From Akkermansia muciniphila (GTDB taxonomy: Bacteria > Verrucomicrobiota > Kiritimatiellia > RFP12 > JAAYNR01), in the NCBI GenBank assembly GCA_945870025.1, contig CAMBQN010000008.1, positions 34,666 through 98,665 on the forward strand: a DNA stretch of 64,000 nt, given 5' to 3'. The notes beneath the pieces were generated by a model, which saw only the letters and a list, made by a program, of their open reading frames with translations, had not been told where the DNA came from and searched no databases. The position numbers and the translations under genes were made by a program. Shown piece after piece: positions 39,635 to 49,793 of this stretch. The stretch's first letter is position 1; the number at the start of each line of letters is the position of its first letter.

Positions 39635-40894
39635 CTACCGCGCACCTTCGGGATGCCCTGTAATTTCGCGCACGATCCGACAGGCTTCATCCAGACGGTT
39701 CTGCATGGCGCCGGTCAGGAGATTGGTGTCGCGGAAAACGAACTCGATGAAGAAGTCGGCCCCGATGTCGAGCGTCTCCTGCAAGTGCGCCCGGAATTCG
39801 GCCGGATCAAACGCGGTCCCGCACAGCTTGAGCGGCACGGGCTTGCGCGACCAGATCACGTTCCGATTGCACGCAGCCGCGAGTTTCTCCAAGTCGCACC
39901 ATGGGGTCACGCTGACCTTGCGCAGGCCGTTCAACTCCTGCAAATGCCCGATGATGGCGTGCACCGGCTCGCAGCAACCGAACTTCATCAGCTTGAACTT
40001 CGCCGCAAGCTTCCGGAAATGCGGCATCAGGAACTCCGCGAACATGTCCGGCGAGATGCTCGACGCCTCCTGCGCCTCCAGGTAGCCATAACGGTCGGTG
40101 GAGCGAACGGGTTCGCCGGGTGCGATGACCCGGCCGGGAATTTCGTCGCTAAACTGCGAACTGCCGGAGCAGTAGCCCTGGTTGCCGTCGTTGTTGAGCG
40201 TGAGCAACCCCTGATCCTCCTGCCATTGCCCCAGTGCGAGGTTCTCCTCGACCAGGAACGAAAACAGGCGATGTACGGCCTCGGGATTGATGGCCATCTG
40301 CAGATAGAGTTCCTCCATCCCCATCAGGTGAACAGCCTTGTTGGTAAAGCCGTCGGAATACCCGGAGTGCACAGACCCAACCTCCACGGGGAGCAGCCCC
40401 TTGAAGACATCCCGGGCCAGTTCTGCACGCTGCTCGGTCAGTTCGCGCTGCAGAACTTTCCGGCGATGCTTGAGCTTATGGAAGTCAGCATCGATGTCCT
40501 TGATCGGCTTGCTGGTCTCGTAGCCGAAACTCCCGCCATGGCCGTCATCCGCGTGCGTATAGCGCAGCTCGTCGCAGTAGCCGGTGACATCCGCCGCCCA
40601 GTCCACGACAAACCGGTCCGGAATGATCCGGTCATCGTTGATGCGCTCGTAAGCGGTCATGGCAAACAGCAGTTGCCACTCCAGCCAGTGGCAATCGGCA
40701 TCCGCACACTGCAACGGCGGCATCACATCGCGGAAGAAGGTGCCGTTGTCCTCGATATGGAAAGGGAAAGTCCGTGCTTTCAGCCCGTTGTTCAAGCGCC
40801 ATTTCATCCGGCGCTGCGCCATGACATCGTTCAACGCATACGCCGCATACGTGCCTGCTAGGCGCCTCAGTCGCAACATAGATGCATCTGTCAT
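39635..40894 (-). CDS. URO-D-like family protein, paralog A (divergent)
   Basis: Length is 419 aa. It sits 11 nt upstream of paralog B. A URO-D-like C-terminal region (KFGCCEPVH) is present. Confidence 0.5.
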   Translation of the reverse strand: MTDASMLRLRRLAGTYAAYALNDVMAQRRMKWRLNNGLKARTFPFHIEDNGTFFRDVMPPLQCADADCHWLEWQLLFAMTAYERINDDRIIPDRFVVDWAADVTGYCDELRYTHADDGHGGSFGYETSKPIKDIDADFHKLKHRRKVLQRELTEQRAELARDVFKGLLPVEVGSVHSGYSDGFTNKAVHLMGMEELYLQMAINPEAVHRLFSFLVEENLALGQWQEDQGLLTLNNDGNQGYCSGSSQFSDEIPGRVIAPGEPVRSTDRYGYLEAQEASSISPDMFAEFLMPHFRKLAAKFKLMKFGCCEPVHAIIGHLQELNGLRKVSVTPWCDLEKLAAACNRNVIWSRKPVPLKLCGTAFDPAEFRAHLQETLDIGADFFIEFVFRDTNLLTGAMQNRLDEACRIVREITGHPEGAR

Positions 40895-43548
40895 TTCATC
40901 ACCTCATTGGATTTTGCAGGTCTTGCCGCCGCGCCTGAAAAGGCGCCCTGACTCGTGTTGAAGTAACTCCCGGTGGTGGATTCCTGCAACACCACGGCGC
41001 GCACCTGATAAAAGAGGCTCCGTGTCTCATCCACGTCGTTGGCTGTCAATATCTTGATCGGCTCATTCGTCAGACGTTCATACGGGCCAAATTCGGATGC
41101 AGCCCGATACACGTGATAGCCCGCGACCGGTTGCGGGGAGGCGATCCAGGTCAGGCGCACGCCGCGGCCGGTAGCCTGCACGCGCACATCTGTCGGAGGC
41201 GCCACCCGATGCAGACGCAAAGTCGGGTCGCCCAGCAAGGCGATATGAATCCCTCGCGCAAAGGCGCCAGCAGGCTGGTAGTCTGTGCCGTCGTTGTTTT
41301 GCGTCCGCCGCAGCGCGTCGCCGATGGTCTCGCCCATGCCCATGGAATGCAGGTACCAGTGCGGACGGCCGGCCCACCCGCAGGTCAGCGCGCCCCGTTC
41401 ATGGGCGATCGTGGCCCGCATGAGATTGTCAGGCATGTTCCAGTCTCCGAAATAACTGCCGAACATGAACGAGAAAACCGCCTCGACCGGCGTCGTGACC
41501 AGCGCGGCGGTGTCGCCGAAGCCCTGCATGGACGTGGGGTGCCCCGGACCGCAGCCCGAGAAGAACACGCTCATGCCGGGCCTGACATTGGGCCAGGTGA
41601 CGGTGCGCACGTGATCCGGATCGAGCAGCGTGGTAAAGTTCTGCCAACCGCTGTAGGCAAAGCGCTCCGGCTGCCCGAAAAAGCCGTCATGAATCAGCGC
41701 GCGATCCGCCACGGGGAGTTGCGCCTGCCGGTAGGCGTGATCGCGATCCAGATACCGGCGGAGCAGGTTGGTCTCGCCGACGCGGAACGCCGGCAGGTTG
41801 GCGAAATCCACGCGCCCGACAGCGAGTTGCACCTGCCCGGGGATCTGACCCTGATCGGGCTTGCCATCGCCGGGCACGTTGAGCTGCGGGCCGTTGCCCG
41901 TGGTCTTCACGGTCGCGTCGGTCCACGTCCCCTCCATCGCGCCGTAGTAGACATCCGCAGGCCATGCACCGGCGTGCTCTCCATGTCCGTCCGGACAGAC
42001 GTTGCCCGCATAAGGAACGGGAACGTGCCCGAGGAGCAGCACCGTGTTCACGTTCGTCGGCGCGCGGTCGTATTCGGCGCGAATCCACTGCCGGATCTCG
42101 GCCGGCGTTTGCGTGGCCTGCACATCCTGTCGCCTGACGTTCCAGCCGTCGCCGACCAGATCGAGCGTCAGCCGGTGGATCTCCGGCGCCAGCGCCTCGG
42201 CCTGCGCGCGCTCGACCACCAGCAGCAGGGTGCCGCGCGTGTCGCGCAACGGAAGCGCGCTGCCGGTCCAGAAGTAATCCGAGTTGGCCCCGTCGCCTTT
42301 CCGGGTGACGGCATACTCGTAACGCTTCTCCTTCATCACCGAGGAGTCGCGGAATTCGCCGGCGGGAACATTCTCCGCCACGACCTGCCACGCTTCGCCC
42401 GACTGCCGGCGCGCAATGCCATACCCCGGCGGAGGCGCTTCCGGCAGGGTCAGAACGACCGTCAAGCCGGATGCGGCCGATTCCAGCCGCACATGCGTCT
42501 CAATCGCCATTTCCGCGCGCGGCAGATCCAGCGGAACGATATCCGTCAGCCGTCCGTCCACATCGAGCGAGACCGCCACATCGTCTGTTCCAGGCCCGGT
42601 CAACGTGGCGCGGGCGATCGCGTTGGTGCCCGCGACCAGTGTGCCGGACGCCAACACCCCGTCCGCCGACCGCAGCCGGACGGCGCGGTCGACCGCCGAC
42701 GCCGGCGCAAACACCTCGCATTCCGTTTTGCCCTCGCGGAGATTGGCCCGCACGCGGGCGCGTGCCGTGACCGGCGGCGAAGCCTTGTCGGACAGCCGGA
42801 TGCGGTGCAACTTGCGACTATCAAACGCCGCGCCCGTCATGGGAAACCAGAGCAGGTGATCCGCCGGGCGTCCCTTGCGGTCATGGCTGTTGACCATCAC
42901 CTGGAAGGCCACCTCGTCTCCCGACTTCGGCGCGATTCCCAGCGTCCGCCAAGGCAGCAACACTTCCATTCGGTAGCCGTCGGCGGTCCGTTGCCGCGCC
43001 AGACTCGGTGCCACGGCATTCGCCCGCAGTCTGGGTGCCGTGGCAAAATCCTGCAGGTTGACGCGCGGCTCCGGAAACCGGGCATCCATGCCCGGGGCCA
43101 CCAGCCACTGGCAGCGATCCGTTGATCCCGGATAGCGCGCGAGGTAGAACTCCACCGAGTCGCGGGCAAAGAGTTCCGAGATCTTCTCCGCCTCGCTCCA
43201 GTCGCTCCCCGCAACGTCCAGCAGCACCAACAGCCCGGCGTCATTCCACCCCAGCCGCATGCTGACCGCGCAGGCCTGCAGAGCGGGCATTGGCCCCTCC
43301 GCCGGGATCAGCATGTCCACGCGGAAACCGCCGTCACCCCAGTCCGTCGCGTGGCCATCCAGAAGCATGGCATCCATGCGCGGTACAGCAAACCCCGGCC
43401 ACGCACGCACGCTTTTTCTTTCCGACGCCCCGTCTGTCGTGCTACAGCCCATCATAGAGACTCCCAGTATAACCGCCAGACATGAGACTATCGTTGGCCA
43501 AAGCCGCCAGACGCCTGCCGCCGGTTTCCATCGCGTACGTGCGTTCAT
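40891..43548 (-). CDS. Lipoprotein with a CBM9/DOMON-like N-domain, a clan-CD (C25 gingipain-like) Cys-peptidase-like core and a C-terminal FN3
   Basis: A lipobox is present (VSMMGC). Candidate His/Cys dyad positions are DGHGEH and FFSGCGPG. Function is uncertain. Confidence 0.45.
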   Translation of the reverse strand: MNARTRWKPAAGVWRLWPTIVSCLAVILGVSMMGCSTTDGASERKSVRAWPGFAVPRMDAMLLDGHATDWGDGGFRVDMLIPAEGPMPALQACAVSMRLGWNDAGLLVLLDVAGSDWSEAEKISELFARDSVEFYLARYPGSTDRCQWLVAPGMDARFPEPRVNLQDFATAPRLRANAVAPSLARQRTADGYRMEVLLPWRTLGIAPKSGDEVAFQVMVNSHDRKGRPADHLLWFPMTGAAFDSRKLHRIRLSDKASPPVTARARVRANLREGKTECEVFAPASAVDRAVRLRSADGVLASGTLVAGTNAIARATLTGPGTDDVAVSLDVDGRLTDIVPLDLPRAEMAIETHVRLESAASGLTVVLTLPEAPPPGYGIARRQSGEAWQVVAENVPAGEFRDSSVMKEKRYEYAVTRKGDGANSDYFWTGSALPLRDTRGTLLLVVERAQAEALAPEIHRLTLDLVGDGWNVRRQDVQATQTPAEIRQWIRAEYDRAPTNVNTVLLLGHVPVPYAGNVCPDGHGEHAGAWPADVYYGAMEGTWTDATVKTTGNGPQLNVPGDGKPDQGQIPGQVQLAVGRVDFANLPAFRVGETNLLRRYLDRDHAYRQAQLPVADRALIHDGFFGQPERFAYSGWQNFTTLLDPDHVRTVTWPNVRPGMSVFFSGCGPGHPTSMQGFGDTAALVTTPVEAVFSFMFGSYFGDWNMPDNLMRATIAHERGALTCGWAGRPHWYLHSMGMGETIGDALRRTQNNDGTDYQPAGAFARGIHIALLGDPTLRLHRVAPPTDVRVQATGRGVRLTWIASPQPVAGYHVYRAASEFGPYERLTNEPIKILTANDVDETRSLFYQVRAVVLQESTTGSYFNTSQGAFSGAAARPAKSNEVMK

Positions 43549-45614
43549 GGTTGCTCCAGTTCTTGGTGCGGTGTACTCACCACACCGTTTCGATCATCGA
43601 ACACATTCAGAAACCACGTGGTTGCGCGCGGCGGCAGATCAGCCTCGATGCGCCCCGTGGCGGCATCGAAGCGCGCCGGGTGAATATTCCATTTGCGATC
43701 GGTCCAGTGACCCAAGGCGCGCGTGACACAGAGTTCCGCCTTCGTGATCGGCCGCGTGCTCTCGCAGACCGCCCACACCTTCGAACCGTCGCGGCCCTGC
43801 TCACGCAGGCGCGGGAGCGGCTCGCCGCCGCGCACGATGCTGTCCATGAAGACGCCGATCTCCGCTGGCGTCCACCCCTGGGGATGGCTGTGCCCCATCT
43901 CCACACGGATGCAGAGTGTGCGCTGTCCGCGCGGCAACTGGTACGACTTCTGCAGTATGGGAAGCGGGTATGGGCCGTCGTTGGTGCCACTGACCCAGCA
44001 CATCGGCAACGTCACTCCCGGCAGATAGTGCGACGGGTCCCAGAGATCGAGCCAGCGCCGCACCTGTTCAGCAGGACGTGTGCGGAAGGCGTTGTCGCTC
44101 CAGCCTGAATCGATCCCGAGGAAACCGCAGCCATAGACCGGAACGGCCGCGCGCAACCGCGTGTCGATGCCCGCCACGATGCAGGTTGCATACCCGCCCC
44201 AGGAGATGCCCGTAATACCGATGCGCCCGGCGTCCACGCCCGGCTGGGCGGCTAGCAGCGAGTGACCGGCAATGGCCGCAGCCACAGCATGATAGGGCCA
44301 CTGGTCTTCGATCGGATCGGCGGTATGGTCCATCGAATCTTCCCACCCGGCGGGGCCGGCGTGCTCATGGCGCGCGTGCGTCCCCCACTGCCTGGTCTCC
44401 GGCGCCCCCGGCACGCACCCGCACTGATCCATGGCAATGGCCGCATAGCCGCGGGCGTTCCACAAGCGCACCCACTCGTCCATGGCTGTGCCGCCTCCGC
44501 CGTGCAACAGCACGACGCCCGGGCAGGTCTGGCCAGCGGGCACTTCCGGAACGCCCAGCCACGCAAAGACACGCGTCGGCTTGCCCTGGTACGGCACGCT
44601 CTCGTAGAAGAGCGCCTGCACACCGGGCGCTGAAAAGTCCGGTGCCGGGAAGGTGGCAGGTGGGCGGGAGAGCATGGCGAGGGTCCAGCTCACTGACTTC
44701 GCTGCGCTCGTCAATGCCGCCTGTAGCGAGAAGCCGAAGGCATGCAACTTGTCCGAGAGAAGACGCCCCAAAGCAGGCAGATCCTTGGGATAGACCGATA
44801 TCAAACGCTTGCCCTCCTGCTGGTAGAGGGTCTGCTTCTTGTACATGCTCATCTTGTACTGCGGCGTGTCGAGGCCCCAGCACTCGATATACACGTCGAG
44901 TTCGGGCAGGTAGAAGTCCGGGCGGATCTGAAACTCACCGATGATCCTGAACTTGGCGTCATAGCGATAGGCCACGCCGTGCGCGGTCAGCCACTCGGCT
45001 ATCTTGCGCTCGCCTGCCGATTGCACGACTGTGCCGTCAGCCGCCTCGATGGTCTTGGCCAACTCGACTTTCATCTCGAAGTTGCGGCGCTCAAGAAACA
45101 CCTCGTCGAAGCACCGGTCGCAGAAAGGCCGCTGGAAGGAAGCATGCGATCGCGCGTATTCGTCTGCCGAGACCGCTGCGCTGCAACGTTGGCATTTGTG
45201 AACGGCCGTGGCAGCCGCAACCCGCAGAACTTCCTCGATATGCTCCACGGCCGACGCCGCATCGCGGCGGATGTAGTCTTTCTCAGCCGCGTTGGCAGCC
45301 ATGTCGCGCAGGTCGTGCAGGCAGGGCTCGGCCACAGCTCCGCAGGCCTTCAGCGCCTTGATCGCATACTGGCGGGTCTGCGCATGCGGATCGTTCCGCG
45401 CCACCGGCGCCAGCGCCGCCACGGCGGCACGCTGGTCCACGCCCAGCCACGCCAGCTTGCCGAGTGCCGAGGCCGCCAGCCGCCGCGCATTGGCCGAAGA
45501 CGACCGCAGCAAATCGAGCATTTCGCCAAAGCCCGCCACCTCGCCGTCGCGGCCGATCGCCACCGCGCGATCCGATAGCCGCTTCTCTAACTGCCTGTCC
45601 ATGGGGTTCTTCAT
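43545..45614 (-). CDS. Fusion protein: HEAT repeats + Zn ribbon + PD-(D/E)xK (DUF559/Vsr-like) + alpha/beta-hydrolase esterase
   Basis: A single 689 aa ORF contains HEAT repeats (AAVAALAPVARNDPHAQTRQYAIKALKACG), a Zn ribbon (CQRCSAAV...CDRC), a nuclease-like segment (IRPDFYLPELDVYIECWG) and an esterase nucleophile elbow (GITGISWGGYAT). Confidence 0.5.
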   Translation of the reverse strand: MKNPMDRQLEKRLSDRAVAIGRDGEVAGFGEMLDLLRSSSANARRLAASALGKLAWLGVDQRAAVAALAPVARNDPHAQTRQYAIKALKACGAVAEPCLHDLRDMAANAAEKDYIRRDAASAVEHIEEVLRVAAATAVHKCQRCSAAVSADEYARSHASFQRPFCDRCFDEVFLERRNFEMKVELAKTIEAADGTVVQSAGERKIAEWLTAHGVAYRYDAKFRIIGEFQIRPDFYLPELDVYIECWGLDTPQYKMSMYKKQTLYQQEGKRLISVYPKDLPALGRLLSDKLHAFGFSLQAALTSAAKSVSWTLAMLSRPPATFPAPDFSAPGVQALFYESVPYQGKPTRVFAWLGVPEVPAGQTCPGVVLLHGGGGTAMDEWVRLWNARGYAAIAMDQCGCVPGAPETRQWGTHARHEHAGPAGWEDSMDHTADPIEDQWPYHAVAAAIAGHSLLAAQPGVDAGRIGITGISWGGYATCIVAGIDTRLRAAVPVYGCGFLGIDSGWSDNAFRTRPAEQVRRWLDLWDPSHYLPGVTLPMCWVSGTNDGPYPLPILQKSYQLPRGQRTLCIRVEMGHSHPQGWTPAEIGVFMDSIVRGGEPLPRLREQGRDGSKVWAVCESTRPITKAELCVTRALGHWTDRKWNIHPARFDAATGRIEADLPPRATTWFLNVFDDRNGVVSTPHQELEQP

Positions 45615-45653
45615 GCCTTACTCCGGTGCTGGCGTCGACAAGCGCTAGCGAAG

Positions 45654-48545
45654 TCAGCCCTTATAGGCGATGCGTTTCACCACGATCGTTCCGCTCGCGA
45701 CCTCCACAAACGGCTTGCCCTTGCGCACCCCCACTGTGCCGTAGCCGGTAGCCGTGCAAAGGAAGGCGCGGAAGTCACCCTTGACTTTCGGCTCCAGGTA
45801 CAGCACCTGCTCGACGGCGTCGTAGCGCGCGCCGCTCAGGGCCTGCAGCAGGCCGTAGCTCGACATGGCGCGCGCATACCAGTGCCCGCACTCGTACTCG
45901 TCGAACGGATTGCGCCACTGGCCGTCGTGACGCTTGCGCACCGCGCGCACGATCATCAGCCCTTCCTTGACCTGACCGGTCATGATCAGGTGCGACGCCA
46001 CATCGTACTCGAAGCCGGTCCAGACCTCGTTGGAATACGGGAACGGCAACGACAGCTTGCCACCTTTGGGCCAGGTGCAGAGCAGCAAGCCGCTCTCCTG
46101 GCCGAAGGCATAGCCCGGCCGCTGCGGGTTGGCGTGATCGTGCAGCGACTCGCGGAAGTTGTGCGTAAACACCGACGCCAGATGCTTCGCGGTCTTCTTT
46201 GCATCCACCACCGGCCCCACCCCGCAGCAGCGCGCGATCCAGTCGCCCAGCACGCCATCCGCGAGACACCCCGTGCCGTACTGGTACTTCGGCCCTTCAC
46301 GCTTGAGGATGGCGATGGCTTCTGCGGAGTAGCCGCCGCCCATGGAAGGGTTCTTCACCGGGTCGCCGGCGCGCAGCCCCTCCCATTGCACCCGCTGGAA
46401 GAACCAGGCGCCGTTCCACAGCGTCGTGGCGATCGCCTTGCGACCCTTGGCCAGCAACGCCACATAACCCGCTACATCTTCGCCACAGGCCCGGCCCATG
46501 GCGATGGCGGCGGCCAGCGCGCCCAGGTAGAAGCTCGTGCACATTCCGTCCGCACCCCAGAACTCGATGTCGTAGGTGTTGTGGTGCGGCTCGATCAACG
46601 TGCCCGTGTGGTCGGGGTCCCACGCGCCGATGCAATAGTCGAGGCTCTGCTTCGCCGCAGGCCAGAGTGTCTTCATCCACTCCGTGTCGCCGCTGATGCG
46701 CCACTCGCGGTGCAGCTTCATCAGGCCGCCGAGCTGGCCGTCAGCAGCCGCATGGAACTGGTGGTCCGGCGTGCGGATGGGCAGCAAGGCACGGAAATTC
46801 TGATGCCCGCGCGCGTCCTGGGTCACGAGGAACTCGGTCTCGCGCAGCGTGCGCTCGAGATCCGGAAAGAGATGCGGTATGGCTTGCGCATAATTCCAGA
46901 CGTGCGTACAGGTGCCGTGGCAACAGCCGCTGCCGGCATGGCAACCCTCCCATGCCCAGAGCCGGCCGTCCGCCTGACGCAGAACGGTCGGCGACTTGAT
47001 GATCGCGAGATTCGCGGCCACGGACTCCACGACTTCGGCCGGCAACGTCGTGTCGTAGAAGCAGTCGCGGAACGCCGCGCTGGCCGCGCGCAGCCGGTCG
47101 TAATGGAGCCGCCAGTGTCCGGCGACCGCCGCGACATCGGCAAACTGCGCGGCATACCAAGGCACATAGAACGGCGACTCCGGCGCAGCGCTGTGGCAGG
47201 AACAGTCACTGCCGCACGCCGCCTCCGCCGGCTTCTGCAGGCTGACGCAAATCCCGTTCCCCTTGCCGTTATCCCGATCCAGGGCGATGCAGATCTCGTG
47301 CTCGCCCTGCTTTAGCGCGATGCGTACCTGCGTCCGGCTCATGGGCGACGGGCTGACCGTTCCCGGTGTCGCGACGACCGACAGGCCGTCCACAAAGACA
47401 CGCACCCCGCCATCGTGCCCCACGTGCAGGATCCGCTCGCAATCTTCCGCCACCTGCACATGCCGGGCCAAATAGACGATTCCGCTCTGCGGACGCAGGG
47501 CGCTGATGTTCACAAACTTCCAGCCGACATCGGTGGCCGGTTCCCATCCAACATCCTCAAAGAAACCGATATGCCGCACCTGCGTGATGTCACCGGCTGG
47601 CATAATCCGGGAGGCCTTCCAGCCGTCCAGCAGGAACGGCTCGCTCCCGTGCGGCATCGGCTCCCAGGCGCTGACCCACATGGTACTGCGCGGTACATGC
47701 CAGGCGAAATGAAGGCGAATCCTCTTCTCCGCCTTGGCCTTGAGCGCAAAGGGCACATACAGACTTCCGCCATTGCCCGCCCCGCCCTCGGCATGCGGCG
47801 GTTGCGCGACCACATCGCCATTCGCCACGTGGTTCCAAACCGTGTAGAGGGGATCGACCCACCCGCCGCGAAACCAGGCGGCATCCACGACCGTGGCTGG
47901 ATCGTCCGTGAACGCAGCAAACCCGCCCTCGGCATCGGGCTGGCTCGCCAGCGCGGGTTGAGACAGCACAAAACCGCGCTCCTTTACGTTGACCACCGCG
48001 TTGTCGCCGATCTTCATGAAATTTGCAGCGTGGAAAGAGAAGACGGCCTTGACCGGCTTAGCGCTGCGGTTGACGAACCGGTACTCGATGGCCGCCACCG
48101 GCAGGCTCGAATCATCGGCCACGCCCGGCGTGAACGGACTCCAACCGGTCAGCTCGGCAGTCACGGGCATCGCGGGGTCGGACAGCGAAACCGTCGCAAA
48201 CGGAAAGCGCGCCTGGAAAGACGCCTTGGCAAAACGCGGCAGCCCGTACGTGCGACCGCTCAGACCATTGCCCGGCTCGCCGAACGTGGGTCCCGTGGCG
48301 CTGCCCATGATCTTCCACATCGGCACCGGTCCTTCCAGAACCCGGGCCGTCTTGGCACCCTTCACGTGCAGGGCCGCAAAGACCTGCGGCTCGTGATTCA
48401 CATCCGGCTTATGCCGCAGCGAGACCTGCGAGAGCGCGCCGGTCCCTTCTAGGCTGAGCATGCCAGCGCCTATGCCCCCCATCGGGAAAGCCACGCGGTT
48501 CAACTGTTCGGCGGTGCGGGGTTGGATTCGGGATACGGCCTTCAT
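45654..48545 (-). CDS. GH116 (GBA2-type) beta-glucosidase
   Basis: The N-terminal FPMGGIGAGMLSLEG hallmark is present. The 963 aa protein has a six-hairpin catalytic domain. Confidence 0.8.
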   Translation of the reverse strand: MKAVSRIQPRTAEQLNRVAFPMGGIGAGMLSLEGTGALSQVSLRHKPDVNHEPQVFAALHVKGAKTARVLEGPVPMWKIMGSATGPTFGEPGNGLSGRTYGLPRFAKASFQARFPFATVSLSDPAMPVTAELTGWSPFTPGVADDSSLPVAAIEYRFVNRSAKPVKAVFSFHAANFMKIGDNAVVNVKERGFVLSQPALASQPDAEGGFAAFTDDPATVVDAAWFRGGWVDPLYTVWNHVANGDVVAQPPHAEGGAGNGGSLYVPFALKAKAEKRIRLHFAWHVPRSTMWVSAWEPMPHGSEPFLLDGWKASRIMPAGDITQVRHIGFFEDVGWEPATDVGWKFVNISALRPQSGIVYLARHVQVAEDCERILHVGHDGGVRVFVDGLSVVATPGTVSPSPMSRTQVRIALKQGEHEICIALDRDNGKGNGICVSLQKPAEAACGSDCSCHSAAPESPFYVPWYAAQFADVAAVAGHWRLHYDRLRAASAAFRDCFYDTTLPAEVVESVAANLAIIKSPTVLRQADGRLWAWEGCHAGSGCCHGTCTHVWNYAQAIPHLFPDLERTLRETEFLVTQDARGHQNFRALLPIRTPDHQFHAAADGQLGGLMKLHREWRISGDTEWMKTLWPAAKQSLDYCIGAWDPDHTGTLIEPHHNTYDIEFWGADGMCTSFYLGALAAAIAMGRACGEDVAGYVALLAKGRKAIATTLWNGAWFFQRVQWEGLRAGDPVKNPSMGGGYSAEAIAILKREGPKYQYGTGCLADGVLGDWIARCCGVGPVVDAKKTAKHLASVFTHNFRESLHDHANPQRPGYAFGQESGLLLCTWPKGGKLSLPFPYSNEVWTGFEYDVASHLIMTGQVKEGLMIVRAVRKRHDGQWRNPFDEYECGHWYARAMSSYGLLQALSGARYDAVEQVLYLEPKVKGDFRAFLCTATGYGTVGVRKGKPFVEVASGTIVVKRIAYKG

Positions 48546-48657
48546 GGACTGTTCCTTAATTCGTGGCTTGTGTGATCCAAGCAGGCCACGGACTTCTCGA
48601 CTCCCGCTTGGAAACGCGCTAGATGATGGCGTTTCCCATCGGCTCTGTCAAGCGGAG

Positions 48658-49224
48658 TCAGAAGCTATACAGCACAAAACCAACGAGGGCGCCGCCCGCC
48701 ATGCCGAGCAGCGGATTGACCCGGTAGCGCCAGGTCGCACCCCCCACCAAGGCGAACACCACAAGCCCACGCCAATCGATCGTGCGTGCGTCAAATCCCC
48801 CTTCTCCGATCATCACGGGCAAAACGCAGGCGGCGAAAAGCCCCAGCGCGGCGGCCAGGACAAGCCCGGCGACCACCGGACGCAGTAGCGCCAGCACGCG
48901 GACGCTGGCGGGAGCGTTGCGGTGCCGCCGCCACACCGCGCCCAACAGGCACACCACCAGCAGCGACGGCAACACGAGCGCCAGCGTCGCTACGAGCGCC
49001 CCGGCCACACCGCCGACCCGGAAACCGACAAACGTGGCGGTGTTGACGGCCATCGGACCCGGTGTCATCTCCGCCACGGCCAGGACGTCGAGGAACTCCG
49101 TCTCCGACATCCACCCGAGCGCCAGCATCTCGCTACGGATCAACGGCAGCATGGCCAGTCCGCCCCCGATCGTAAACAGCCCGATCTTGAAGAACACCGC
49201 CATCAGTTGGAACAGGACGCTCAT
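48658..49224 (-). CDS. chrA: Chromate transporter ChrA family, half-protein 2
   Basis: MSVLFQLMAVFFKIGLFTIGGGLAMLPL begins the protein. The ORF-track N-terminal extension is R/G-rich junk. Confidence 0.7.
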   Translation of the reverse strand: MSVLFQLMAVFFKIGLFTIGGGLAMLPLIRSEMLALGWMSETEFLDVLAVAEMTPGPMAVNTATFVGFRVGGVAGALVATLALVLPSLLVVCLLGAVWRRHRNAPASVRVLALLRPVVAGLVLAAALGLFAACVLPVMIGEGGFDARTIDWRGLVVFALVGGATWRYRVNPLLGMAGGALVGFVLYSF

Positions 49225-49793
49225 CGTGTCCCCACGTTCCGCGTCTGCGCCACGGCCCAAGCCTGCCACAACAGCCCGGCCACGATCGCGCCGAGGATCA
49301 ATCCGAGCGGACCCGACGCGCCGACCAGCATCACGAGACACGCCCCTGCGGCCACACCCCGTTCCCAGTGTTTGCCGCGCCCGACCATCCGCAACGCCGT
49401 GACCAGCAGCAGTCCCGCCACCGCCGGACGCAGCCCGGCGAACAGCCGCGCCAGAAGCGGCCATTCGGACACCCACACAAACGCCGACGCCACGGCCAGG
49501 ATCACCACAATCGGCGCGCTGACCATCCCCAGCGCCGCCACCGCCGCACCCGCCGCGCCGCGATAGCGGTGCCCCACCAGCAGGGCCGTGTTGACCGCGA
49601 TGACTCCGGGAATGACCTGCGCCAGGGCGTACAATTCGCTCATCTCCGCGAGCGTACACCACCGCCGGCGCTCGACGACCTCGCGCTCCAGCAGCGGCAG
49701 CATGGCGTAGCCGCCGCCAAACAACACCGCCCCGACCCACGCAAAGCTGCGGTAGATGCGGGATAACGGAACCGGCTGTTCAGGAGTCGTCAC
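49221..49793 (-). CDS. chrA: Chromate transporter ChrA family, half-protein 1
   Basis: FAWVGAVLFGGGYAMLPLLEREVVE is present. It overlaps the second half by 4 nt. Confidence 0.7.
   Translation of the reverse strand: MTTPEQPVPLSRIYRSFAWVGAVLFGGGYAMLPLLEREVVERRRWCTLAEMSELYALAQVIPGVIAVNTALLVGHRYRGAAGAAVAALGMVSAPIVVILAVASAFVWVSEWPLLARLFAGLRPAVAGLLLVTALRMVGRGKHWERGVAAGACLVMLVGASGPLGLILGAIVAGLLWQAWAVAQTRNVGTR

Follow-up and report, generated by a model that had tools for sequence, protein, structure and literature searches.

Single genes bracketed by short inverted sequences are known from several bacterial systems. RAYT transposase genes of repetitive extragenic palindromic (REP) and REPIN sequences are single-copy, vertically inherited and conserved, and are flanked by inverted hairpin-forming repeats. 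In some insertion sequences (ISs) the transposase reading frame extends across the right inverted repeat, and in pdif modules genes are bracketed by inverted Xer sites. Here we describe a comparable arrangement in a stretch of 64,000 nucleotides from a Kiritimatiellia genome assembly (GenBank GCA_945870025.1, contig CAMBQN010000008.1, positions 34,666 to 98,665; hereafter the window), in which one open reading frame (ORF) of 689 aa joins a module of HEAT repeats, a C4 zinc ribbon and a PD-(D/E)xK nuclease fold to a serine esterase. We consider it likely that this ORF is a maintained read-through fusion of a compact, promoterless single-gene cassette, which encodes the module, into the esterase gene. 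This reading builds on the anatomy of the cassette, its independent fusions to other enzymes, a series of in-frame deletions and purifying selection on both halves of the protein.

Like RAYT genes, the module gene is conserved, single-copy and vertically inherited and lies between inverted hairpin repeats, and the doublets of the hairpin motif found in one group of paralogues (group 2) resemble REPINs. In contrast to the REP/RAYT system, the motif is not dispersed in the 1.06 Mb of sequence scanned, and the protein has a PD-(D/E)xK rather than a HUH/Y1 fold. With ISs and pdif modules the cassette shares a single gene between short inverted sites, the lack of an internal promoter and possible fusions with flanking genes; as in pdif modules, there is no target duplication. 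However, it encodes no DDE, HUH, serine or tyrosine recombinase, its copy number is one, and its hairpin, with 4-6-bp arms around a GCGNAGC mini-hairpin, is not dif-shaped. At the protein level, the module has the alpha-beta-beta-beta-alpha-beta core common to Vsr, Bax1, T7 endonuclease I, Cas4 and Holliday-junction resolvases, none of which carries the HEAT and zinc-ribbon additions. The same three-domain order is found in the PADLOC-DB v2 model PDLC01150 (HEAT_CxxC_PD-DEXK), which matches aa 5-291 of the window protein at model positions 1-285 of 288 (E = 4.4e-116). The family is already catalogued but uncharacterised. The PADLOC entry is a protein model alone; the hairpins, stop-less ORFs and fusions described below lie outside it, as far as we could determine.

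The fusion is genuine and maintained

The fused gene (43545..45614, stop codon included; all features placed in the window below are on its minus strand) is a single ORF that starts with ATG. A sequence-only reading of the window had described a continuous 689-aa frame with several motif strings, and all of these are in place: CQRC at aa 141, CDRC at aa 165, RPDF at aa 231, IECWG at aa 243, HGGGG at aa 371 and GISWGG at aa 469. It had also raised the concern that a frameshift or an assembly error had produced the frame, and had proposed a search for orthologues sharing the fusion. Such orthologues exist. Full-length fused proteins make up seven protein clusters (P0001-P0007; 65-93% identity) from JGI, ENA and Logan assemblies, and the fusion is also present at two loci in metagenome-assembled genomes (MAGs) from GTDB. 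One of them, L001, is from a Kiritimatiellia MAG from Lake Mendota and has a module 97-98% identical to the window copy, so that the window very probably stems from a close relative; in the other, L002, the module is 87% identical. The junction peptide ..TS[AEV]AKS.. is in frame in all seven clusters, which come from different projects, and in both MAGs.

At dS values of up to 0.6, the module evolves with a ratio of nonsynonymous to synonymous substitution rates (dN/dS) of 0.08-0.10 and the esterase with one of 0.11-0.21. The comparison of the window with L002 (dS about 0.55-0.63) gives ratios of 0.10 (module) and 0.11 (esterase). Since dN/dS is about 0.1 in each half, both halves are selected as proteins. 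The thousands of homologues, together with the low dN/dS, also distinguish the frame from a chance GC-rich ORF. A sequencing or assembly artefact uniting two genes could in principle be provoked by the GC-rich hairpin at the junction, although nothing in support of it was found. Because the same in-frame fusion recurs in independent assemblies and MAGs, with both halves under purifying selection, this explanation can be set aside as extremely improbable. The fusion is genuine and evolutionarily maintained, and the earlier concern is thereby dispelled.

The module gene is bounded by inverted hairpins

The first 297 aa of the fusion normally constitute a standalone gene. A search with aa 1-307 retrieved about 1964 protein clusters, nearly all of 297-325 aa and 75-83% identity. 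A scan of species-representative genomes yielded 175 module loci, nearly all labelled as belonging to the Planctomycetota-Verrucomicrobiota-Chlamydiota (PVC) group, the carriers being Kiritimatiellia, Lentisphaeria, Verrucomicrobiota and a few Planctomycetota. The cultured Oligosphaera ethanolica DSM 24202 is a carrier (locus L026). Two loci have labels from outside this group, namely, L065 (Candidatus Erginobacter) and L075 (a Microthrixaceae MAG). The latter is a frameshifted cassette with both hairpins (positions 599-1508) on a 2.3-kb contig of an actinobacterial MAG bin, and represents either a binning error or a transfer beyond the PVC group. The module is usually present in one copy per genome; some genomes carry a second paralogue group, about 60-65% identical.

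The module gene is bounded by an inverted pair of 22-26-nt hairpin motifs (TTGACGMGCGNAGCRAAGTCAG), and the unit so defined is 945-976 bp long (about 960 bp). One motif, (T)TGACGMGCGNAGCRAAGTCAG, lies directly 3' of the gene. The upstream inverted copy starts at a distance of about 28-61 nt, mostly 37-48 nt, from the ATG and usually has one additional base in the inner loop. Among 81 loci, the right inverted repeat (IRR) was recognised in 70, the left one (IRL) in 67 and both in 63. In the window, IRL (CTGACTTCGCTAGCGCTTGTCGACGC, 45632..45657) starts 43 nt before the module ATG, similar to its distance in the 67 loci, and its TGA (45654-45656) terminates the preceding gene, which belongs to glycoside hydrolase family 116 (GH116). 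The interval between IRL and the ATG has space for a ribosome-binding site (GGAG) alone; the cassette is thus promoterless, as there is no room for a promoter. The IRR hairpin (44685..44722, with the core GACGAGCGCAGCGAAGTCAG at 44693-44712) is located within the ORF, at codons about 300-308 (LTSAAKS).

The hairpin is two-tiered, with an outer TGAC/GTCA stem and an inner GCGNAGC mini-hairpin. Pair 12-27 covaries (AU 48, GC 18, GU 8), and none of 500 shuffles equalled the observed score. On the sense strand, the window IRR adopts the covarying structure with a folding energy of -12.8 kcal/mol. The G.T versus A.C intermediates at IRL are equivocal as to the folding strand. No Rfam family matches the motif. 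An upstream stop codon falls within IRL at 13 of 29 loci, a count confounded by spurious long ORFs, so that the GH116 case of the window alone is trusted.

In 1.06 Mb of scanned sequence, 213 copies of the motif lie no further than 250 bp from a module gene. More distant copies in gene-carrying loci are confined to local arrays at L027 and L046 and to one group-2 copy at L069 (274 bp), and the window has two copies, the flanking ones. REP-like dispersal of the motif was considered and rejected, as there are essentially no copies away from the gene in this sequence. One metagenome scan gave 29 gene-adjacent matches and about 12 distinct solo sites, against a rough chance estimate of 5-15.

Several variants of this arrangement were observed. 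The arrays in L027 (3490-3795 and 5056-5075) and L046 (6749-6850), which are related Lentisphaerae MAGs, consist of three to four motif copies spaced by ~80-140 bp and lie 0.5-2 kb from the module gene. Other tandem repeats are found downstream of the module gene in L034 and L009. Group-2 paralogues (L068-L080) have a variant motif, TTGGCRAGCGNAGCGAGTCAA, in REPIN-like head-to-head doublets about 20-110 nt before the ATG, and several of them have no recognisable right-end copy. In addition, a genuine array of clustered regularly interspaced short palindromic repeats (CRISPR) with at least 13 copies of a 37-nt repeat, GTCTCAATCCCCTGACGAGGATTCACTGTCTTCCGAC, carries the cassette hairpin motif in one spacer (GACGCGCGGCAGCAAAGTCAG; L125 2224-2244 and L128 3193-3213). 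No protospacer matching this spacer beyond the 24-26-nt motif was found in the examined loci or in viral contigs.

The reading frame crosses the right hairpin into the esterase

No IRR could be recognised in 14 of 76 near-full-length loci. The remaining 62 have their stop codon ahead of IRR (32 loci), inside it (4) or beyond it (26), and in the last group the C-terminal tail of the protein is derived from flanking DNA. Between G294, which is the last conserved residue, and the right hairpin lies a linker of variable length, and alternative tails such as ..DERSEVS.. and ..TSEAKSG.. are the same hairpin DNA in different reading frames. In one frame, the TGA of the hairpin TGAC would end the protein, producing the common 297-aa form; in the two other frames, translation would continue past the hairpin into the adjoining downstream sequence. 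The frame in the window crosses the hairpin as L-T-S-A-A-K-S and goes on with V-S-W-T-L, which corresponds to the N-terminal motif of the esterase family (VSWPLDRL).

The C-terminal half (aa about 309-689, 43548..44690) is an alpha/beta-hydrolase matched by the Pfam AXE1 (PF05448; 30.7 bits, cutoff 21) and S9 profiles, both above cutoff, and by acetyl xylan esterases in the PDB. As in AXE1/DLH/S9 hydrolases, it has a G-x-S-x-G elbow (G469-I-S471-W-G473), an HGGGG oxyanion motif (371-375) and a Ser-Asp-His triad, formed by S471 (44202-44204), D546 (43977-43979) and H575 (43890-43892); the triad is at least 97% conserved among 102 homologues. About half of the AXE1 profile is aligned (59-207 of 321), and the N-terminus in the window has been replaced by the cassette. 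Standalone esterase homologues have 8-25 residues and their own start ahead of the W-P-L-D motif, whereas in the window the position of this motif directly follows IRR, the native start and the first ~10-20 codons being gone. Fused orthologues show no conservation of the internal Met314. As the right hairpin has replaced the native start and there is no conserved internal Met, the esterase depends on the cassette ATG and, judging from the sequence, can only be made from it, as a predicted two-part protein of ~76 kDa. In the window lineage, the cassette occupies the interval from the GH116 stop codon to the esterase, and its right hairpin abuts the esterase motif.

Independent fusions and in-frame decay

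Elsewhere, the module is fused to a ThiS/MoaD protein (P0041), to two types of GNAT acetyltransferases (P0048/P0076 and P0052), to SagB-type nitroreductases (P0065, P0069, P0083, L050) and to the JAB domain of RadC (P0245). All module fusions are at the 3' end. N-terminal fusions via IRL were also considered and rejected, the long upstream open frames being translations of GC-rich junk. Two further proteins, P0240 (509 aa) and P0243 (467 aa), consist of the module and ~200-aa C-terminal extensions that match nothing in Pfam. The MoaD fusion is located within a molybdopterin operon (moaA-moeA-moaC-mobA-[module::moaD]-moaE). It is difficult to see how this arrangement could have arisen unless the cassette was inserted into an operon that already existed.

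The fusion with the esterase also has in-frame derivatives. In P0007 the nuclease core is lost, in P0008 aa 47-297 are lost, and in P0009/L081 only IRL, the ribosome-binding site and TTG-AAG-AAC ('LKN') precede the esterase, the rest of the module being gone. The need of the esterase for the cassette start codon explains this series.

These data bear on whether the fusion is a functional innovation, in which the module would bind, target or regulate the esterase within a glycoside-hydrolase cluster, or a purpose-built nuclease-esterase architecture. The fusion does sit in a carbohydrate-active gene cluster and has persisted over a dS of about 0.6 with both halves constrained. On the other hand, standalone copies of the module are equally constrained and retain the invariant, putatively catalytic residues, the same module is joined to MoaD, GNATs, nitroreductase and RadC, lineages with in-frame deletions of the module keep the esterase, and standalone esterases at 70-76% identity need no such module. 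We therefore regard functional innovation as improbable. A purpose-built architecture does not hold up either, because the module is a catalogued standalone family fused to at least five unrelated enzymes and is dropped in the deletion derivatives that retain the esterase. Given that stop-less ORFs read out of the cassette and that partners elsewhere are unrelated, the fusion is best seen as a by-product of cassette architecture and not as a dedicated nuclease-esterase. Presumably each half folds on its own and works without the other, one as a structure-specific nuclease, the other as a serine esterase, and the fusion appears to persist as the sole route to esterase expression, not through cooperating activities.

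Domain structure of the module

The N-terminal domain (aa 1-135, 45210..45614) is a HEAT-repeat domain. The model of the full module shows a solenoid of stacked antiparallel helix pairs (helices at 26-135), for which Foldseek gives alphaRep/HEAT matches with a probability of 1.0. The window copy scores 22.4 bits against Pfam HEAT_2, under the cutoff of 27.7, whereas some relatives exceed it (for example P0048, 31.8; P0065, 29.2; P0076, 33.9; P0253, 44.8 bits), and PF13646 is recorded for many homologues. The zinc ribbon (aa 138-172, 45099..45203) is formed by C141, C144, C165 and C168, with two beta hairpins in the model, and its four cysteines are invariant in the core family (alignment A1).

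For the third domain (aa 185-295, 44730..45062), the AlphaFold model of aa 137-298 (predicted local distance difference test score of 94) displays, after the zinc ribbon, the alpha-beta-beta-beta-alpha-beta core of PD-(D/E)xK nucleases. Best Foldseek matches of this model in the PDB are Vsr (1cw0/1vsr), Bax1, T7 endonuclease I and Cas4, with Vsr at the top (E = 2.5e-3, template modelling score 0.40-0.50); the acidic pair of the module, D233 and E244, is on strands 2 and 3. PHROGs gave weak matches to Holliday-junction resolvases and homing endonucleases. No Pfam or NCBIfam family matches aa 175-310, and the Vsr (PF03852) and DUF559 (PF04480) profiles do not match at E<=1. Thus, of the domain assignments made in the sequence-only reading, the HEAT repeats, the C4 zinc ribbon, the PD-(D/E)xK fold and the esterase all stand, and 'DUF559/Vsr-like' is valid for the fold alone, as neither profile matches. 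The Pfam check that it had proposed was likewise divided, with AXE1 and S9 above cutoff, HEAT_2 below it and the nuclease part without a match.

E202, D233, D240, E244 and K260 are invariant in relatives down to 30% identity. In contrast to canonical PD-(D/E)xK nucleases, the lysine position (+2 from E244) is occupied by W246; judging by their conservation, K260 on the next helix and E202 are candidate substitutes for it. Retention of the invariant acidic and lysine residues speaks against a repurposing of the nuclease fold for binding, as had been suggested earlier. Across the family the module is highly constrained, with dN/dS of 0.04-0.12 (about 0.05) even at saturated dS. The nuclease domain is also found on the N-terminal side of UvrD helicases and adjacent to DuOB and RQC domains.

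Is the cassette mobile?

At class level there is no conserved synteny of the module. Its phylogeny shows coherent family-level clades with star-like deeper nodes, and the labels of the MAGs lack the precision needed to read horizontal transfer from it. From the diversity of contexts and the case of the moa operon, we infer that the cassette reached its site in the window by insertion.

Several observations weigh against the proposed reading. No clean empty site was found, the close esterase-only loci L138 and L139 not being syntenic with the window, and no target-site duplication was detected, 53 of 56 loci having no direct repeat of at least 2 bp outside the inverted repeats. Most genomes have one copy, and the G+C content at third codon positions (GC3) of the module correlates with that of the flanking host DNA (r=0.71). 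Certain clades at family level keep the same neighbour, and synteny is conserved within a Pontiellaceae/Kiritimatiellales clade. An identical protein found on 24 contigs is always in one context, a housekeeping neighbourhood. As for the window copy, codon 245 (44880-44882) encodes Cys in place of the Tyr present in all 76 other copies compared, L001 included (IEYWG to IECWG). This substitution adjoins the invariant, putatively catalytic E244, for which reason the window nuclease may be impaired; Y245C may be either a hypomorphic allele specific to this strain or an error in the sequence. Finally, the sequence alone leaves room for a functional interaction between the two halves.

A miniature cassette of ~125 bp, composed of IRL, the last ~15 codons and IRR and resembling miniature inverted-repeat transposable elements (MITEs), and a frameshifted full-length cassette lie kilobases apart on one 23-kb metagenome contig, with ends 90-97% identical (L086 385-525; L135 7683-7808; L111 5100-6010). 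This contig is the single exception to the lack of multiple copies or variable sites.

One may ask whether the cassette is an active IS-like transposon, with the PD-(D/E)xK protein as its transposase, the hairpins as terminal repeats and the fusion as a transposition event. Terminal inverted repeats tightly surrounding a single ORF, the missing class-level synteny, the copy within the moa operon, the contig with a MITE-like derivative and a frameshifted full copy, the CRISPR spacer with the motif and the two paralogous copies in some genomes would all fit. Yet there are no target-site duplications, the single copy is near-universal, identical proteins share one context, dN/dS is ~0.05 with saturated dS and GC3 is host-adapted. 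Moreover, the module was not found in phages, plasmids or viral contigs, and no known transposase family was matched. Active transposition is accordingly rather doubtful.

Somewhat more plausible, but still tentative, is the possibility that the gene and its two hairpins form a previously undescribed promoterless mobile cassette, moved by its own structure-specific nuclease or by a host recombinase and spawning N-terminal fusions. The nuclease would cut at the extruded hairpin ends of the cassette, or a host recombinase would act; insertion would be co-directional, between or into genes; and, with no stop of its own in two of three frames, the cassette would repeatedly become the N-terminal part of fusions with esterase, MoaD, GNATs, nitroreductase and RadC. 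Returning to the read-through fusion of the window, the cassette behind it appears to be a rarely or formerly mobile unit.

A defence gene?

Alternatively, the module could be a single-gene anti-phage or anti-plasmid defence nuclease with the HEAT repeats and zinc ribbon as sensors and the hairpins as regulatory elements, in which case the fusion would be irrelevant. The PADLOC-DB model spans the family end to end, and the nuclease domain is common to the PADLOC candidates PDC-S69 and PDC-S68 and adjoins UvrD helicase, DuOB and RQC modules. PDC-S68 and PDC-S69 are predicted 'guilt-by-embedding' candidates (bioRxiv 10.1101/2024.01.29.577857). We could not trace the source of PDLC01150 in the literature or in the PADLOC papers and supplements, nor did we find an experimental function reported there. 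Annotated neighbourhoods are housekeeping or glycoside-hydrolase operons and not defence islands, and such extreme sequence conservation is atypical of defence genes. A defence role is, in our view, unlikely.

Genomic neighbourhood of the fused gene

The fused gene belongs to a glycoside-hydrolase gene cluster. Its downstream neighbour (40891-43548) encodes an 885-aa product with CBM9 and a peptidase-C25-like region and a lipoprotein-like N-terminus, and the overlap of the two genes noted in the sequence-only reading is confirmed: the TGA of the fusion (43545-43547) and the ATG of the downstream gene (43546-43548) form an ATGA (43545..43548) that couples them translationally. The upstream gene (45654..48545), assigned to GH116 by its DUF608/GH116 domains, ends within IRL; transcription of the promoterless cassette probably comes from this gene. 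In the near-identical MAG contig L001 the whole gene (2942 bp, window 45670-48611) is missing, and the cassette there comes right after the membrane-protein gene located upstream (window ORF 48658-49740). The GH116 gene is kept in the window and in L066, which shares a MAG bin with L001. The boundary of the indel is 12-15 bp beyond IRL and has short microhomology. No further cassette copies were detected in the window by tblastn or blastn.

Implications

The cassette may be a rarely mobile element, a defence gene or a self-regulated nuclease. The nuclease probably recognises its own terminal hairpins, which would be the most economical hypothesis on cassette function. The hairpins thus offer a concrete, testable substrate for an orphan nuclease. 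For a nuclease family listed in a defence database, the picture is now one of about 80% identity, covarying hairpins, no room for a promoter and often no stop codon of its own. As regards annotation, the multi-domain enzyme of the window is better regarded as a cassette gene running on into its neighbour than as a new carbohydrate-active architecture, and the fusions with MoaD, GNAT and nitroreductase should be read likewise. More generally, the locus illustrates how, in natural bacterial genomes, the insertion of a small gene can come to supply the translation start for a host gene and so create fusion proteins.

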